NCBI RefSeq assembly: GCF_006345805.1
Contig: NC_043011.1
Span: 56,990,464-57,054,463 of the forward strand
Length of the DNA stretch: 64,000 bases
Origin: Octopus sinensis
Taxonomy: Eukaryota
Direction of reading: 5' to 3'
Part shown: piece by piece, positions 34,194-52,843 of the stretch
Position numbering within the stretch: position 1 is the first letter of the stretch
How the letters are laid out: every line of letters begins with the position of its first letter
Translations under genes and position numbers: made by a program
The notes under the pieces: generated by a model
What the model was told of the DNA's origin: nothing
The model's input: only the letters and a program-made list of their open reading frames with translations
Database searches by the model: none

Positions 34194-35655
34194 TTAAGGT
34201 GTTAGTGTATGATATTTGGTTGCTATTTCTAGCTGACCAAGAGACCATGTAGAGACTCCTTTGTTTGTTTAATAGGATTGAGTGGACAAGAGTGAAGTGT
34301 ACCTTCTTAATTAGGGTGCTGTGTCCATTGCAGGTAATATTTCCCAGAAATGTTGGCTATCAGTTTCATGAACCACAAGAATCTCAAAAGGGTCAACACT
34401 TAACCCTCTGCTCTGTAGCTATCCTCTCACCTTCACTCACTAATATCAGTACTAGGTACGTTATTCCCCCCCCCCCAACTTTTTATTATAAATTGCCTAG
34501 ATCTTTGAAGAAGTTAACAAGCCAGCAAAGGAGAGTTTATGCTGTCATTCAACCCTGCTGGACATAGCAGCCAAGCCTCTCCTCCAACCACAACCTATCA
34601 GTTTACTGTAATCCTCGGTAGATAATGTGTGAATACATGAAAGGATGATCGTGGTTGGGTTGTCTTAGGTCGCTTCAATCAGGGTTGAACTAAGCCACAA
34701 CACTAATGGAATTAGTGTGTTGTACTGAGCCATGTTGAAATGACTGTCCTCTTAAATCTTGGAGACTTGAGGAGATTTGAAAAGGGCTTTGCTGGTGCAT
34801 TCAGTGGTAAGCGCTGCATCTTGGATGCCAGAAGGTTTCAAGGGTTATCACGAGGGAAAATGGCATCATTTCGTGGCATTCACCTTGACAGCTTTATCGC
34901 TTACCAGCCCCAGTCACTGATGTGAGAATCCCCACCCCACCCACCTACCTTTACGGCTGACTTGTCTTTGACCTCAGGTGCAAAAGAAATGGACTTTGGA
35001 TTAAATTTGTTACTTTTATCTAGTTTCATCTTACCGAGTTGAGTTCACTCCCCTGTCAGGACATAGCTATGGTTACCTACCTCAAAGCTCAGTAAAATAA
35101 GAATCAATAACACACACCAGGTGGCAGCACAACTGATTCCATTACACTCTTCTTCTCTCCCCCTCCACCTTCAAACTGTTGCTCCCTCCCCTTGACCTTT
35201 ATGTAAGAAATCAGTATTGTTGATCTCTGTTTTTGGCAAGCAGTGGGGGGGATGTCTCTCTCCCCCTCCCTCTTTCTCTCTCTATATTTCTCTCATACAT
35301 ATACACTCTTAGATGTCAAGTTTTGTCTTTGAATTCCTGCACACACACACATACACACGCACGCATGCACCTTATTTACTTGTGCATGAGTCACACTATT
35401 TTATACTTGATTTTAACTTAAGATATAAACACCTGGGGGGTGACTTATACTTGGGGTCAAAACTAAAAATGTGAAGGGAAAAGATTTTGTACCAAGACTT
35501 AACATCAAAATTAGGGGTGCAGCATGAGTACCCATGGTACATTAAGTGAGATTACAGTATAAGTAAGAAAGAGCCCAAATATAATATTTTTATCATTGAG
35601 ATAATTACTGAATAACTTATGTTGTTGTTTTTTTTCTCTCTCTCTCTCTGTTTAG

Positions 35656-38600
35656 CTGCAATGTCATCTCTTTTCTCCAATGCTTCTGGTGGAGACAAGC
35701 ATCGGGAAACACAATTACAACTCCAACGTAAGCTGCAAGAACGAGAAATACTGAAGGAGCAGAAACGTCGTCTACATCAACAAAGGCAAGAGAATGAATT
35801 TGATAGCAAATCTCCCCAAAGGACACGAAACGAAACTCACACCCCGGGCCTTCCAAGCCCGAAGACCAAGTTTTTATCACCGTCATCTTGTTTACGATTT
35901 CGATCATCAAGTAGTTTGGAGAACTTACTCATGCCGACTGCGTTATCCGATAGTAAATCTCGCATCAAAGACCAACCTACGAGTTATGCAACAGCTGCTG
36001 CCGCAGCAGACCGGAGATGGCATCAACCAAATTGCCAAGATGTGGCTTCAAGCATTGCTGCACATTCTCTTTCCCAGCCATTAAAACTGTTGTCTGCTCG
36101 ATCTCTTTTCCAAGAGAAAACTCCAGATAAATCATCCAGTATCTGTGATCAATCCGACGAAAGATCTACGTCTCAGCTCTCCAAAAAGGAGGGCAGCCAC
36201 GATTCAGCAGACACAAAGCCCAAAATAGACCAACTGGAAAACTTTCTTTCTGTGAAAAAGCCATCTGTGATCCCAGCTCAAAGTTGGGTTGATGAGAAAG
36301 GATGTAGCAAGCCTAAAAGTAACGCTGGGTCAAGTTTATCAGCCATATTGTCAACCCCTAATGAAGAAAGTGAAGACAACCTGCACAAAAATCAGTCATC
36401 AGCTGATGACAACAACGGCACTGGTGCCGATGCTGGGGATAATCAGACAGACAACAGTGTGAATAGTAACAGTGGTACCTTTTCCCTAAACGTGATTCTT
36501 GATAAAACTTCACGAGTTGGGAGTGGAGTACCCCTTGTTTCGCAGCCTGGTTATGCAAAAAGTGCATTTGTTCCTTTTTCGCAGATGCATTTGCAGAATG
36601 TGGCAGACACAAAGACAACACAATCAACTGATTACGCAGTTCCATCATCACAGAAGACAGCTGAGCATAACTCTGAGCCGAGTATTTTAGCACAAATGTT
36701 AGAATCAAACGAAAACTCATCGTCACCATCTTCTCCTAATTGTGGACAGAGTGGCAACTATGTGCAGGTTCCATCTTCTAGTAAAGCAAGTGGGGAGTCT
36801 GAAAGTGTGCCTGTAAGTTCTGTAGAATTAATCAGTCAAACATCTCCATCTGTTTCCAAACGATCTCGATCCCGCTTTGCACCAATACGTCCCAAGGCCA
36901 TGCAGCCTAAAACAGTATTGTCATTACTACAGGAACCAAGTACAAGTACCTCTGACTTCCCACACTACGATTGTCGGCCAATATCTGCAATTTTAAAAGA
37001 AAAACGTGCTCGAGAACAGGCTGAAGCGCTGAGCCAAAGTAACAGCGTGACATCACTCCCTGCATCCCTCGCATCATCCACTTCTACTGCATCCCCATTC
37101 AATTCTGTTGCAACTGTAACAGAAGTCGTTACTATACCTGTCAACCATGTTAGCAAGTCAAATGAACTTCTCATAATCTTGGGGTCCCCAGCTTCTGGAG
37201 CCATGGGTCATTCCGGTAATGTGTTTCTATCATCTGCTCAGAACACTCCAGCCATTGTTTCAGGAACTAATTTGGATCAGCAATCTGCTGTAACGGCAGC
37301 AACCATTCTCCAAACCATTCCATCAATCACAAGCAATATCGTTCCCAAACCTGATGCCGTCTCCTCCCTTAGCAACAACCCAGGATGTATTACTGCTAAT
37401 AACGAACAGCTGAGTCTGAAAACTATACAATTAAGTGCTACCAACCTTTCAATTCCTACTCAGCAGCTGTTCACCTCCATAAATACTCAACCTGCAATTA
37501 CTACGGAAGAACCACCAAACAACACCATTCAAACTGCTCCAACCATTGGACTTTCTTTGACCGGTGGTCTAACTGGTCTGTCTGATGTACAAGAATGTCC
37601 AATAGAGAACCAGAATCAGTTTATGATCTCTAAAAACATCCAGTTAGAAGGAACTTTGCTTTCAGGTTTCAACTTTAGTTTAGCAGATACTTCGCAGCCA
37701 CAAGTTGGTTCAATTGCAAACATGTTGGCAACAGACGCCTCCATTCCTCAGGTAGCAGTAAAAATGGAACCAGGTAAATTAGATTGCACATCTGCTCAAA
37801 TCCCATTGTCTACCATTGCTTCAGTTGGAAAAACTGCTATGGTTGAATCGTCTGTTGACATTGCGAATTCAAACGAACCCAGTGGGGCAAACAGTGTGAA
37901 CCAACCTCAGTCGATTGCTAAAATATTTCTAAGTGATTTCACTCAATCAATAAATTCCTCTGAATCTTACCCTAGTGATAGCGCCGTCATTGTTTGTAAA
38001 AGGGAGCAGATTGCTGCTGCATCTCAGACCAAACAAGAAACTCCTCAGCAACAACAACAACAACCACCACCACCTCAACAACATCCACCATCTCTTTTGA
38101 GACCTTTACTCAACTCTGATCTGAACTCAAGCGAACTTTCGAAAACTAAAATCTTGAATGAACTGCTGAGTTCTGAAGATTCTCCGGAAACTAAATCAAA
38201 CCCTGACAGTCCTTTGGAGGAAGTGAAATTAGAACCCATCCATGAAAACCTTTTAGACAGCTGCTTGAATTTAAAAAGTTCTCCATCGAGTTCTGAATCT
38301 AATCTAGAAGAAATGTCACTTCAGTCAGAAGTGGCAACGGTGTCGGCTGTGTTACCTGGTTCCATCAACGAAGAAGACATGGTTAATTCTCAGACTGGAG
38401 CAGCATCTGGAGAATCTTTAATTTTTTCAAGACCTCCGTCGTGTGGTCGAACTTTGTCAGGCGACACATTCTTCTCAGTATCTCAGGGTAACATCACAAC
38501 TCCGGTAACAACTGGTTTACTTCATCTTGGTACATTAACGAGCAATGGGACTATTGCTTTTGTCAGTACCGAACCTGTAGCTGTTAGTATGCCTGCTCAG

Positions 38601-41600
38601 CAACAACTACCTGTTCCTCCTCCCCTTCCCCCTCTCAATGACAAGAACACATGTTTGCAAACAGATACGGTTGTCACTTACAGCAATCAGTTAGTCTCCA
38701 GCCATATGTCTTCTGCTTCTTCATCACAGACTATCTTAACTGAAAACAAACCAATTGACTCGACCATCACCTTTCCTGTTGTCCAATCTAACCAGGTGGG
38801 TGCGGATAATTCTGATTCACTGATCATAGATTTCAACCCCCCTTCTAACGAACACTTGCTCAAAGCTCACTCGGACAAACCCTCGAATAACCGCAAACGG
38901 AAAGCCAGCGATAAACCGGTTTGCAACAATTCCAAAAAGAAAACCCAGGTAAACAAACTTGCTGCTGATTTGGCAGAAAAAATTGAAGCGAATGTTTCTT
39001 TGATCTCTGCGGGTCAAGACTGGTCAGACATATTAAGTAATTCTTCAGATACGCTGAACAATTCTGTGAGCAGCAGTGCCATTGTAGAATCTGTTCAAAG
39101 CCCTGACATATCGAGTGTAGAAAAGGATGCTTTGTTGGACAGTACTCCGCAAATGGTCAACCTTGGATTGTCCAGCCCTGGATCGAGTCAATGGCTCTCA
39201 ACCAGCAAGATGAGTTCCCATGCCCAGACCATGTCCACTGGCATTAGTGGTAAAACAGCAAATCTTTCTATAAAGCTGCTCCAGAGGCAGTCATCGCAGC
39301 AAGCTGATAAGCATATTACCGATACTCTGAATATCAACCCGTGTCTGGCCAAAGATGCTGTATCTACTATTAGTCATCATCTGGATGCTGTTAGCAGTGA
39401 TACTAACAATCAGTTATCTGCACAAGGTGTTTCTTATGCAGAGTTATCTCCCCACCAGGTGGCTTCAGAACTTGCTGCTTTCAAGCGATCTGCCTCTGAT
39501 TCTCTCCCTTCCTTCTTACAATCCGTTGAGCAAAATTCCCCCTCAAATAATCTTGGAGATAAAACGGCCAACAAAAGCAGTGCCAAGAGAAAAATGTCTT
39601 CAGATTCTAGTTTACTTCAAAAACATCTCACTGACATATCCCTCCGGCAACAGACACTGCAAGAACATCAGCAACGTATCAAACAAGTGAAGTCAAGCTT
39701 TTTGTCCGACATCTTACAGTCTTCTGGTAGCGAAGGGAAAAAGGATTTTATTGAAGATGAGCTGCCATCTGATGTTGCTGACTTCATTACCGAATCGATG
39801 ACATGTAACAGTCAAAACAACTCTGTATTTCCAACGAGTGGCGCTAACGAACAGCCATTTCCTGATCTTAAGCATGATGTGGAAGATTTATTGAACCAAA
39901 CCAACACGTCCATTCCTTCTGAAGGGCCTGGGTCTGTAACTGTTACCACAGCTCTTAGTACTAATGAGTTTGTCTCTGAAGTTAACTTCAAAGGTGCTAC
40001 AACATCCATTTCACTGTTAAGTGAAGGCAACCATAAAATTAATGTTCATAACAACAACAACAACAGCAACAGTGATGCCTCTAATAACTCAACAATTAAC
40101 CGTCCAATCGGGGATCTTCTCCTCAAAAAAAAAAACACATTTGTGATCCCTGATGCACAAGCTGTAGTTCGGAAAGGGACCGAAGTAAAGCAAACTCGGT
40201 TCCCTGCAGTTGCACTCCTTCACCACAATCAACAACAACAACAACAACAGCAGCAGCAGCAGCAGTTACTGCAGCAACCACAACATGTTTCTTCTGTGCA
40301 ACCTACATCTTTATGTGACATGGCAGCTTTCCAAGTGTCTTCTTCTCAGGCACCAGAATTTGTGGCTCCTAATGTTACTATAACGCAAAGGTGGCACACT
40401 ATGAACTATGACAAAACTGGTTCTCACACCCCAGTGTCAGATAGTGGCTACAGCAGTGCAAGCCCTATACACAGTACTCCACCTGCTGTCTCGAATTCTT
40501 CATCAACTACAACTGACCCTTTGCTTAACAATATTATTACTGGTTTTGAATCTCGATCGTCGAGTTGTGAACCACCAACTCAAAGCCCTGTCACAGACCA
40601 ACTTCTTCAACATTATACACCACTCATTCTTTCTCAGGGCTCAAACGGAAGCTCGGTGCCCAGTCCGACAAATCTCCCACCCTCCCCAAAAACCTTTACT
40701 CCCATCCATGGAAGCTCATTAGGTACTAATACTTATGACCCACCCCCCATTCGTCCTACGGCCACTGTAGCCAGTAAAATTCTATCTCACCAATTACATT
40801 CTGTGACTGGCTCTTCAGCTTCCAAAGTTCAAGCCCCAGGGAGTAGTTCTCAGCAGCCAAATAAATTAAATAAAGAAAACAACAAAGAACTGCTGAATCT
40901 GTTGAAAGCCAAGAATCCCCCTTCCTACGAAAATGCCATTCGAATGCTAAATCAGAAAGCAGCACAAGGAATCGGCTCCTCGTATCAAAACCAAAGTCAT
41001 AGCAGCTTATCCGGAACCAACGCTAGCCATGCGGAACAACAACAGCAGACAGCAGCAATAACTACAACAACATCGACAGCAACAACAACAACTACTGTAA
41101 CACCAACATCAATAGTGGCTGCAACAATGCCGAAAGCAAGAACGAAAACTCGCTCCAAATCCGTATCAAACAGTAACTCTGGCAAGAGCAGAACCAGCCG
41201 AAGGCGTTCGACAAAAGATAGCAACCCAAGCAACAGTGTGGAGTCAGCGAAAAAGGCAAGTGCACCTCATTTAGTGAGATGCTTGTCTGATAACAGTGGT
41301 ACCATGTCTAGCACAAATGAGACACAAGTTGAGGAGAACTTGAATGCAAAACCATCAGAAACAGAGTTGAAATCTTCAGGATCTGAGAACCATGAAGCTG
41401 GAAGTAAAGAACCTTTGGTAATGAAAAAGAGATTAGCTGTGTCAGCAGCATATCCTTTCTCTTATAAACTATCTCTATTGAAAGATCGCAGTGCGGTTGT
41501 CATACCAGTAGCTGCTGGGGACCATCCGACCGTCTCAGTAGAACATCCGGCCACCACCACTCAGGCCGAATTCACTAAAATACCGTCGGTCAAGACAGCA

Positions 41601-42644
41601 AAAAGCAAAAACGAAGAAAGATTAAGCATCAGTCGGTCAAGCAAGTCTGGCCAAATCATCAAAAACTCTAAGTCCATCTCTCGCAGCCAGTCTGTACCAT
41701 TACAGAACGTAGATGCTGGCAAACCGAAACAAGGTGGAACCCACAAAAAGAAATCAACCCACATTTCAGATCTACCAAATGTTAATTATATGGGAAACGC
41801 TCCAAATGTAGATTTGAGTCGGGTATTTTGGGAGAAAGTCCAGCCGACACAGAAGCCTAAAGCTCACAGAAAATGTGTATCAACCAATAGTGAAAGTGGT
41901 AGCAGTAATAGTGAGAGCAGTAGTAGTAGTAGTGGTGGTGGTACTGGCGCCACAAGTGGTGCTGGTGGTAGTGGTGGTAGCAGCACTGGGAAAGGAGGCA
42001 GTATCAGTGGTATGAATGAGAGCAACAACTGCAGTGAGGACAGTAGCAACTTGTTGATGAACGTAAGCACATCTAATAACTTCATAGGTAAAGGGAGCCA
42101 GATCCTCGAGACGGGTTCAACGGAAATAAACGCTGAAGATTTCCGAGCTAACCTCGACGTACTGTTGAACATGCATTGCTTCCGGAGGGACTTCGAGCAA
42201 GGCGGTTCCCTATCGTTGGTCAGTGCAGACAGCCCTGTCACAGACCAACAACAACAGCCCCTGATCGTATCATCTCAGGTTGCCCTTCAACTTGCTGGTT
42301 CAGTGTCGACTGTTATTACTACCACAACTACTACTGCTGCTGCTGCTACTACAACTGCTGCTGCTGCTTCTACTGCTACGACGACTAGTCCTACCGCTTC
42401 TAGTAACAACAACAACAACGGCAGCGGTAGCAGCAGCAGCAGCGACAGTGGCAGCAACGCTATCACTCATAGTACAGTTTCTACGACCAATTCTCCCAGC
42501 ACCATCACTACCACCACCACCACCACCACCACCAACAGTAACAGGAACACTACTATCTTGGAAGAACGACTCAGTTCTGGTGCTTACCAAGATAGGATGT
42601 TACAGTCTCAAACAGTAGCGTACTCTCCACACTCTATGCAGTAA
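35656..42644 (+). CDS. RFX7: RFX7-like giant terminal coding exon (S/T/Q/P/N-rich, probably disordered C-terminus)
   Basis: 6989-nt open frame after a (CT)n tract and tttAG. Phase 1 is compatible with the upstream donor; TAA stop at 42642-42644. The six exons total 7617 nt, i.e. 2538 aa plus stop. Confidence 0.9.
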
Positions 42645-51737: not shown

Positions 51738-52529
51738 TTTTAACTGTTATCCCTATAGAATTCAGAGGCCAGCACTGCAAGTTACAATGTTTCATAAATG
51801 AATACATCTATGTAAACAATGTGATCGAAGATAGAAAAAGTAAGTAACAGGTGTATATGCATTTTTCAAGAGTTATTGTCCTTTCATCAGTGCTACATCC
51901 AACCATTAACTATCCACGTACACATTGTCTAAACAATCACCAAATTTAGCAGTGTAACACAACTGGATTGACCAGTCTACAAATTAAACACATTACTGGC
52001 AACTTGTATGTACATATCATTTGTATTCGTTTATGAAATGTCACAACTTGCAATATTGGCTTTGAATTCTATGGAAAATCTACAGAGGTAAACTTAGAAA
52101 TGAGAATATCACACTGCTAACACAAAATGAAAACACAATATTGACTTATTAACTTGTAATATACTCAGTAGTATATTATTATGCTTGCAAAAGCACCTAT
52201 ATGGAGGTGGGGGTCTCTCAAGAGTAATAATGCAGTATTTGGTGTTCTAACAAGACATCCATATTAAGTTGAATACAAAGATTACCTTCACTGTTTACAT
52301 TTGACGGTTCTTTGTCCTCATCCTGTTTGTTGTTAACAAAATGTTTCGGCTGATATACCCTCCAGCCTTCATCAAGTGACTTGGGGGAAATTTCAAACCT
52401 GGGTTCTCATTTCTAAGGTATTTTTTAATGTAATTATCATTATTATTATTATTATTATTCAGGTCACTGCCTGGAATCGATCTTTGAATCTTGGGCTTAG
52501 TAGCCCATGCTCTTAACCCCTATGCCCAC

Positions 52530-52602
52530 GGGCATATGGCATAGTGGTTAAGAGCGCGGGCTACTAACCCCAAGATTCCGAGATCGATTCCAGGCAGTGA
52601 CC
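52530..52602 (+). pseudogene. tRNA-like sequence (SINE-type head, anticodon loop CT-ACT-AA), with a mirror copy on the minus strand at about 52452-52527
   Basis: A box TGGCATAGTGG, B box GATCGATTCC, GGG/CCC anticodon stem. Acceptor and T stems are imperfect. Confidence 0.7.
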
Positions 52603-52671
52603 TGAAAAATAATAATAATAATATCAAAAAAATACTTTAGGAATCAGAACCCAGGTTCAAAATTTCCTCAA

Positions 52672-52717
52672 GACACCTGATGAAGGCTGGAGGGTATATC
52701 AGCCAAAACATTATGTT
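52672..52717 (+). ncRNA. Degenerate minimal type I hammerhead ribozyme motif
   Basis: GACAC-CTGATGA-A-GGCTG-loop-CAGCC-AAAAC-ATT-ATGTT. The mirror copy at 52335-52380 (-) keeps GAAAC but has TTGATGA. Confidence 0.6.
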
Positions 52718-52807
52718 AACAACAAACAAGATGAGGACAAATATCCATCAAATGTAAATAACGTACATAATTCCTCATCTTTTGAATATAGAACTGGAAA
52801 GATTACC

Positions 52808-52843
<36 letters not shown>

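Follow-up and report, generated by a model that had tools for sequence, protein, structure and literature searches.

The window, a stretch of 64,000 nucleotides of octopus DNA, carries a 509-bp insert bracketed by the TSD, an exact 12-bp direct repeat found at 52277-52288 and 52798-52809 of the forward strand, where the original prediction had placed insert and repeats. Upstream, a single stop-free frame of 2342 codons (35616-42644, + strand), rich in Ser and Gln, has the appearance of an exceptionally long terminal exon belonging to a regulatory gene of the host, possibly an RFX7-like one, and the insert lies 10 kb downstream of it. A Pfam search with the 2342-codon frame gave no significant match.

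The insert consists of two inverted arms that are 84, 88 and 92% complementary where they pair. Positions within them are counted from +1, window position 52530, a numbering that coincides with standard tRNA numbering. The inversion of the arms had been correctly predicted, but not their equal length of about 230 bp: the right arm reaches +266, the 3′ end of the family with its tail, whereas the left ends at about +233. The right arm opens with a tRNA-like head (52530-52602, + strand), in which the invariant tRNA residues stand at their canonical numbers and the stems are eroded, and which contains an A box at 52537-52547 and a B box at 52582-52591. It continues with the (AAT)n tract of the pLTR (52605-52624) and the first 51 codons of a Penelope ORF (52643-52796), whose ATG at +113 is here ATC. 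Within these codons lies a minimal type I hammerhead (52672-52717, + strand), inactivated by G12>A, a CG>CA change and loss of the closing pair of stem I, with the predicted cut between 52712 and 52713 according to the motif as defined in PMC4209133. The A box, the B box, the (AAT)n tract and the hammerhead-like motifs were thus found where they had been predicted. A supposed second B box is instead coding sequence a small number of codons past the ATG of the element, and misses the final C of a B box. The arm ends with the PLE “tail” (about +241 to +266, 52771-52797, + strand), present on this side only.

The left arm (52289-52527, − strand) is an inverted, untailed pLTR copy covering about +8 to +233, as judged by comparison of the arms and in line with the inverted arms of the family, which stop at about +231 to +243. 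Its hammerhead (52335-52380, − strand) is inactivated by C3>U, by loss of the stem I closing pair and by CG>CA in stem III, the lesions of both window copies being scored against family column counts. The arms join within a natural hairpin of small size (−6 to +7, 52523-52536), which overlaps the modal 5′ end of the family; the junction interrupts the left A box, and T54>A is common to both true B boxes of the window.

The predicted TTTT near 52780 is indeed present, but it is private to the window copy, the family majority having no TTTT, and a role as terminator was rejected. Neither ARAGORN nor Rfam called a tRNA or a hammerhead in the window insert or in five other copies, and the matches of the insert to miRNAs reflect its hairpin only. 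The window insert is a solo pLTR, arranged head-to-head and no longer alive, that belongs to a Penelope-like element (PLE) of the Poseidon type. A MITE or foldback DNA transposon was ruled out by the unequal ends, the variable length of the TSDs and the link to an ORF. An inversion produced by assembly, or a palindrome formed only once, was also ruled out: 47 of 90 loci are head-to-head and opposite-strand joints are present in raw RNA reads.

Abundance and age of the repeat family

A search of the 2.72-Gb genome (G000) with the right arm returned copies that are 89-94% identical, and a 27-mer taken from the hammerhead has 3752 exact occurrences, against 0 for its reversed control, which rules out a chance motif. 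Since the 27-mer is kept by 10 of 55 unselected units, the family comprises about 20,000 units; an alternative estimate, from five insertions in 400 kb of arbitrary sequence, gives 11,000-79,000. Units diverge on average by 6.5% from the family majority and, because no near-identical match to it was seen among the copies, the family looks inactive. Short copies are about five- to tenfold more common than those linked to an ORF.

The arm is the pLTR of an autonomous element

The connection of the arm with a Penelope element first appears in a copy (L022) that extends upstream into a reading frame. When G000 was searched with the end of the ORF, all 30 loci examined ran on into at least part of the arm, and in a near-full copy (L061) the order is inverted pLTR, pLTR remnant, ORF, pLTR. 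The majority ORF opens at +113 in the arm, takes in both the “second B box” and the hammerhead as it continues, and keeps one frameshift near codon 190; two natural copies (L210 and L218) are stop-free for about 390 codons from the ORF start towards the RT, and a relative that is 49% identical (P0001) has the same PDxG...PKRCV start. A natural piece of the ORF is matched by Pfam RVT_1 (E 1e-9), with the RT motifs present, and the thumb and GIY-YIG region is 32% identical to an Anolis protein (P0019), likely the studied PAc element to judge from its length and N-terminus. Among 107 homologues of 697-1326 aa, 106 have RT and/or PF26215 domains. Pfam did not recognize the EN and N-terminal pieces, and the EN assignment is based on alignment and motifs.

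The parent element, of which the window copy contributes just the first 51 codons, has therefore the single ORF of a PLE, with a PLE-type RT followed by a C-terminal GIY-YIG, and the arm supplies both its 3′ UTR and the beginning of its ORF. In the aligned region its RT-EN linker is free of the Zn-finger that is a feature of Neptune and Nematis, and the element also shows tandem and inverted 5′-truncated pLTRs, an optional tail and a minimal hammerhead in the pLTR. That the arm belongs to a Penelope-like element is practically certain, and the suggested involvement of Penelope machinery proved right.

Two features of the assembly and of the pLTR were noted along the way. The same 8-kb locus is present on contig C1 and on unplaced contigs (L061, L063, L064 and L049; 97.8-99.8% identity), L063 and L064 being the same locus as L061, and represents either haplotypes that were not collapsed on assembly or a duplicated segment. 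A 9-nt unit of three codons in the ORF start, at pLTR +220 to +240 and adjoining the untailed 3′ end, varies in copy number (L200, L208, L218).

The hammerhead

The majority hammerhead, built from 56 units unselected for the motif, is of the PLE minimal type I form, with a 5-bp stem I, CUGANGA followed by one A, a 5-bp stem II, GAAA and a palindromic ACGU, and with a predicted cut after GUU. The ancestral core proposed from the window copies agrees with this majority (CUGANGA...GAAA-CG-UU|GUGUU), which has both the intact core and stem I. Erosion by CpG decay is likewise borne out, the free N7 being the sole common non-CpG variant of the core. The core is intact in 24 of 40 unselected units and mutated in both hammerheads of the window. 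These lie on opposite strands, so that one RNA has only one in sense and a dimeric ribozyme is impossible in cis. An RNA read through both arms is predicted to form a single long hairpin (−312 kcal/mol). In the minimum-energy fold of the monomer stems I and II form with the core paired, and co-folding did not produce the catalytic dimer. The hammerhead is thus the usual one of PLEs, and the palindrome can be accounted for without it.

Head-to-head pairs and the mode of insertion

The arrangement of the units was surveyed at the first 93 of the 3752 places of the 27-mer, corresponding to 90 loci on contig C1 selected on the 27-mer alone. Head-to-head pairs account for 47 loci, solo units for 37 and long unpaired copies for six, with one complex locus (L066) among the 90; head-to-tail tandem units, each with a hammerhead, as in retrozymes, are not the arrangement of these loci. 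The pLTR 3′ ends cluster at about +241 or +266, the difference being a tail of about 25-30 nt where the optional tail of PLEs measures 30-40 bp, and of the 47 pairs 32 have one tailed and one untailed arm, one has both tailed, three have none and 11 include a broken arm. TSDs, mostly of 11-14 bp, were found at 25 of 45 head-to-head loci against 1/45 in a shifted control, in agreement with the target priming foreseen for the window insert, and at 5/37 solo loci (control 1/37). Inverted truncated copies, tails and palindromes at junctions have been described for PLEs (PMC8557442, PMC3846280), and the anole Poseidon protein is reported to nick both strands in vitro, its RT starting at two internal sites, between which the tail lies, and requiring ORF sequence past the tail, not hammerhead cleavage (PMC11167929). 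A head-to-head pair with one tailed arm and TSDs is the known insertion form of Penelope, and the inverted architecture, for which no precedent had been named, was already described for PLEs (PMC8557442, PMC3846280, PMC4209133).

These data bear on the proposal that the insert is an independent Pol III SINE/retrozyme, self-cleaving as a dimer and moved in trans as a palindromic unit. The excess of short copies would suit such a family, Schistosoma offers SINEs with Pol III-type heads and hammerheads (PMC6765202), and paired arms share rare variants (19 vs 4.9 expected in 58 pairs). This sharing indicates that some templates differed from the majority; the arms also disagree at subfamily markers beyond the expectation from mutation (4/54 at +151, 6/32 at +64) and, taken together, most pairs would come from one source or have been converted, and some perhaps from two templates. 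Against a separate lineage, 184 short and 51 ORF-linked units have no fixed difference, with two minor sites at P<0.01 and the same subfamily markers. A tRNA-SINE is distinct from its partner except at the 3′ end, whereas this unit is the pLTR of its partner and has no terminator and no sequence lineage of its own. The anole RT, as described, needs ORF sequence beyond the tail that is missing in short copies (PMC11167929). Junction position and arm lengths vary from locus to locus, 43 of the 90 loci are unpaired and the hammerheads are on opposite strands, so that the preformed head-to-head dimer is largely refuted, and the proposal as a whole is very improbable.

The tRNA-like head and the 5′ boundary of the copies

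The part of the insert that is unusual is the tRNA-like head; the palindrome, the hammerhead and the TSD are ordinary PLE biology. In the family majority the A and B boxes match the consensus perfectly, and the acceptor (2/7), anticodon (3/5) and T (3/5) stems are eroded, confirming a tRNA-like head with a decayed cloverleaf. Like a SINE, the unit carries at its 5′ end a head related to tRNA, complete with A and B boxes, with ARAGORN and Rfam negative; the box pattern arose by chance twice in ten shuffles of 400 kb.

Short copies preferentially begin between −9 and +1, with a mode at −6. Among 102 heads in 130 loci, 54 are without fold-back at the head and, once 13 ending downstream of +1 were set aside, the 5′ ends of the remaining 41 fall in −10..+1 in 24 cases (a few of which are probably missed fold-backs), in the next 108 nt in eight and beyond in nine, an approximately tenfold hazard at the head. 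On the genome scale, matches number 4062 at the head, where pairs count twice, 743 just upstream and 60 at the ORF start, over the next 2.3 kb, and of the seven full-length elements with a 5′ pLTR extending as far as the head, three begin between −6 and +4. Since no fixed difference separates short from ORF-linked units, the most suitable interpretation of the short copies is that they represent the 5′ leader of the RNA of the element.

Many of the apparent 5′ ends at +76 have a different origin: the (AAT)n tract, variable in length, is interrupted by inserted foreign sequence at no fewer than seven of 90 loci (L079, L143, L144, L159, L176, L188 and L195). The insertion in L188 includes a LINE-like ORF piece with zf-RVT, and these events suggest a microsatellite-targeting LINE, presumably R4/Dong-like.

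The boundary might instead be mechanical, with the RT stopping or snapping back at the structure of the head on ordinary long RNAs that have no start site there. An imperfect hairpin at −16..+10 includes the junction of many pairs, and self-priming at pLTR palindromes has been proposed for rotifer Penelope (PMC3846280); even the smaller hairpin at −6..+7 might fold back and so bring cDNA synthesis to an end, which counts against a start site set by the head. Conversely, unpaired copies also end at −9..+1, several of them inside the hairpin, and so do pairs whose partner starts at +45 to +224, and an RT would be expected to stall at the 3′ foot of the hairpin (+10) rather than past it. We regard a purely mechanical boundary as unlikely, and the head as probably the transcription start of the element.

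Which polymerase starts at the head

Pol III terminates at runs of four T (T4), and a Pol III promoter in the head thus predicts that the sense strand is free of them. The 2862-nt majority unit contains 0 T4 on this strand. Synonymous shuffling of two stop-free ORF segments (800 codons) gives 2.63 expected (P=0.04), or 4.43 (P=0.005) if the Phe codons are given another, unbiased T/C ratio, and all five TTT codons of the majority ORF are flanked by non-T; natural copies carry 0.22 T4/kb over 53 kb. The ORF of a head-less Neptune-like PLE of the same genome has four to six T4 runs (11 copies, the frames being long enough in 11/30 loci) and five other control ORFs have one to five each. The absence of T4 is a single observation on a single master sequence; control ORFs are also somewhat below their own shuffle means, and G4 is likewise absent from the majority element (1.1 expected).

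When the anole EN domain was used to search G000, the 30 loci examined of 150 matches all belonged to the present family and no sister Poseidon family was found among them; the Neptune-like family (L256-L285) served as control instead. It is younger, with a Neptune-like Cys linker, a C/T-rich coding strand, frames of up to 1009 codons and 92-99% protein identity among 150 matches of its own, and is possibly still active; no A/B boxes or hammerhead pattern were found within the 30 of its loci examined. At least two further tRNA-SINE families with different heads and bodies are present, seen at about 32730 (+) of the window and at L099, L123 and L126.

Transcripts were sought in about 6% of each of three RNA-seq runs of one organism, whose species may differ from that of G000. 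Reads fall equally on both strands of the unit and 82-85% continue into unlike flanks; no position where many molecules begin or end and no pile-up at the predicted cut were seen in the three runs, and the A-to-I hyper-editing sought as a check gave no signal in them, A>G, T>C, G>A and C>T being alike. These mostly read-through reads give no direct sign of transcription by Pol III; such libraries would miss short uncapped RNA.

The same element might be transcribed by Pol II, from the TATA-like box or a LINE-type internal promoter, with the head as a passive SINE remnant in the 3′ UTR of the master. A TATA-like sequence, overlapping the ORF stop, lies 33 nt before +1, a distance that would suit initiation by Pol II at that very point; the heads of other tRNA-SINEs in G000 show 66-69% similarity, and the ORF needs translation. 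The Drosophila Penelope promoter is described as internal and LINE-like (PMC2377424), and TATA/Inr-like motifs are reported in rotifer pLTRs (PMC3846280). The boxes are nevertheless intact though the stems are eroded, the start falls exactly on tRNA +1, the TATA is missing from copies that begin at −6 although full-length elements are among them, and T4 is absent. A Pol II origin of the start is thus a minority reading, and Pol III is, by a modest margin of belief, the polymerase predicted to transcribe from the head. A stronger version, in which the full 2.9-kb template RNA of an autonomous PLE is made by Pol III from a captured tRNA promoter, with an ORF purged of T4 and with the SINE-sized derivatives, about 20,000 units in all, arising from the 5′ leader of the element itself, is tentative and rather doubtful.

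We thus favour, with a probability of about 0.6, the reading in which the insert is a short copy of a Penelope/Poseidon-type element, made of a pLTR and an inverted pLTR, and in which the RNA start is set by the head, probably a Pol III promoter that the element has captured. The RNA would begin at the tRNA-like head of the pLTR; the element protein would nick both target strands and reverse transcription would begin at two internal sites near the ORF start, as extrapolated from what is reported for anole Poseidon (PMC11167929). cDNA copied back to the RNA start would yield SINE-sized solo pLTRs, and priming at both nicks, or fold-back, would account for head-to-head pairs in which the tail is present on one arm and missing from the other. 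Besides the RNA reads, the TATA-like box and the short hairpin, two points weigh against this reading: T54>A in both arms of the window would, if the template already carried it, indicate that the Pol III promoter of the source was weak, and Pol III RNA is uncapped and, in the account of PMC10886601, thought too short-ranged for autonomous elements.

If the favoured reading is correct, a Pol III-promoted PLE would blur the divide between autonomous Pol II and short non-autonomous Pol III elements drawn in PMC10886601, a SINE-like family could arise in cis from its own PLE, and the misannotation of such pLTR copies as tRNA-SINEs would be explained. Separately, the short copies, which number in the thousands and share one fixed start and a choice of two fixed ends, are an in vivo record on which the model of PLE insertion by internal initiation and priming on two strands, as given in PMC11167929, can be tested. 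In a search of open-access PMC and bioRxiv no paper was found that describes a tRNA-derived promoter in a PLE pLTR or a Penelope-mobilised tRNA-SINE; set against this literature alone, the novelty of a tRNA-like start site in a PLE pLTR is credible.

Comparison with known systems

Octopus tRNA-SINEs named OK, OR1 and OR2 were reportedly described by Ohshima and Okada in 1994 and are said to have tRNA-derived heads. The unit studied here, set beside them by description and not by sequence, may be the same as OK or OR1. OR2 is given as a CORE-SINE in PMC4758252.

A close likeness is with anole PAc as described in PMC11167929, which shares with the octopus family the single ORF with RT then GIY-YIG, the linker without Zn-finger, an ORF start that overlaps a hammerhead, a pair of 3′ ends separated by about 25-30 nt and AT-rich targets; tandem and inverted pLTRs are likewise a trait of described Penelope/Poseidon PLEs (PMC8557442, PMC3846280). 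The hammerhead does not differ in motif, on comparison of sequence, from the minimal type I PLE hammerheads of PMC4209133, with which it shares CUGANGAH, the extra base before stem II, the G-C closing pair, the palindromic 15.2-16.2 and the short stem I, and opposite-strand PLE hammerhead pairs 100-700 bp apart were noted earlier (PMC4209133, Cervera and de la Pena 2014). Unlike PAc in that description, the octopus family has a tRNA-like A/B-box head at the pLTR start, copies that start there and no T4.

A small-RNA-derived Pol III promoter in a terminal repeat, with the boxes kept and the cloverleaf lost, is reported in the TRIMp3 elements Cassandra, Helenus and Ajax (Kojima 2024, PMC10886601); these are presented as non-autonomous LTR elements of 0.3-1.3 kb, whereas the octopus repeat is in a coding PLE of 2.6-2.9 kb. 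The Schistosoma SM-alpha/Sj-alpha SINEs resemble it in combining a Pol III-type head with a hammerhead (PMC6765202), and animal non-LTR retrozymes in being proposed pLTR derivatives (bioRxiv 10.64898/2026.07.22.740005). As described, these SINEs and retrozymes are head-to-tail tandems without an ORF, whereas the octopus unit occurs scattered through the genome, singly or in head-to-head pairs, and does not differ from the pLTR of the autonomous element that is its parent.
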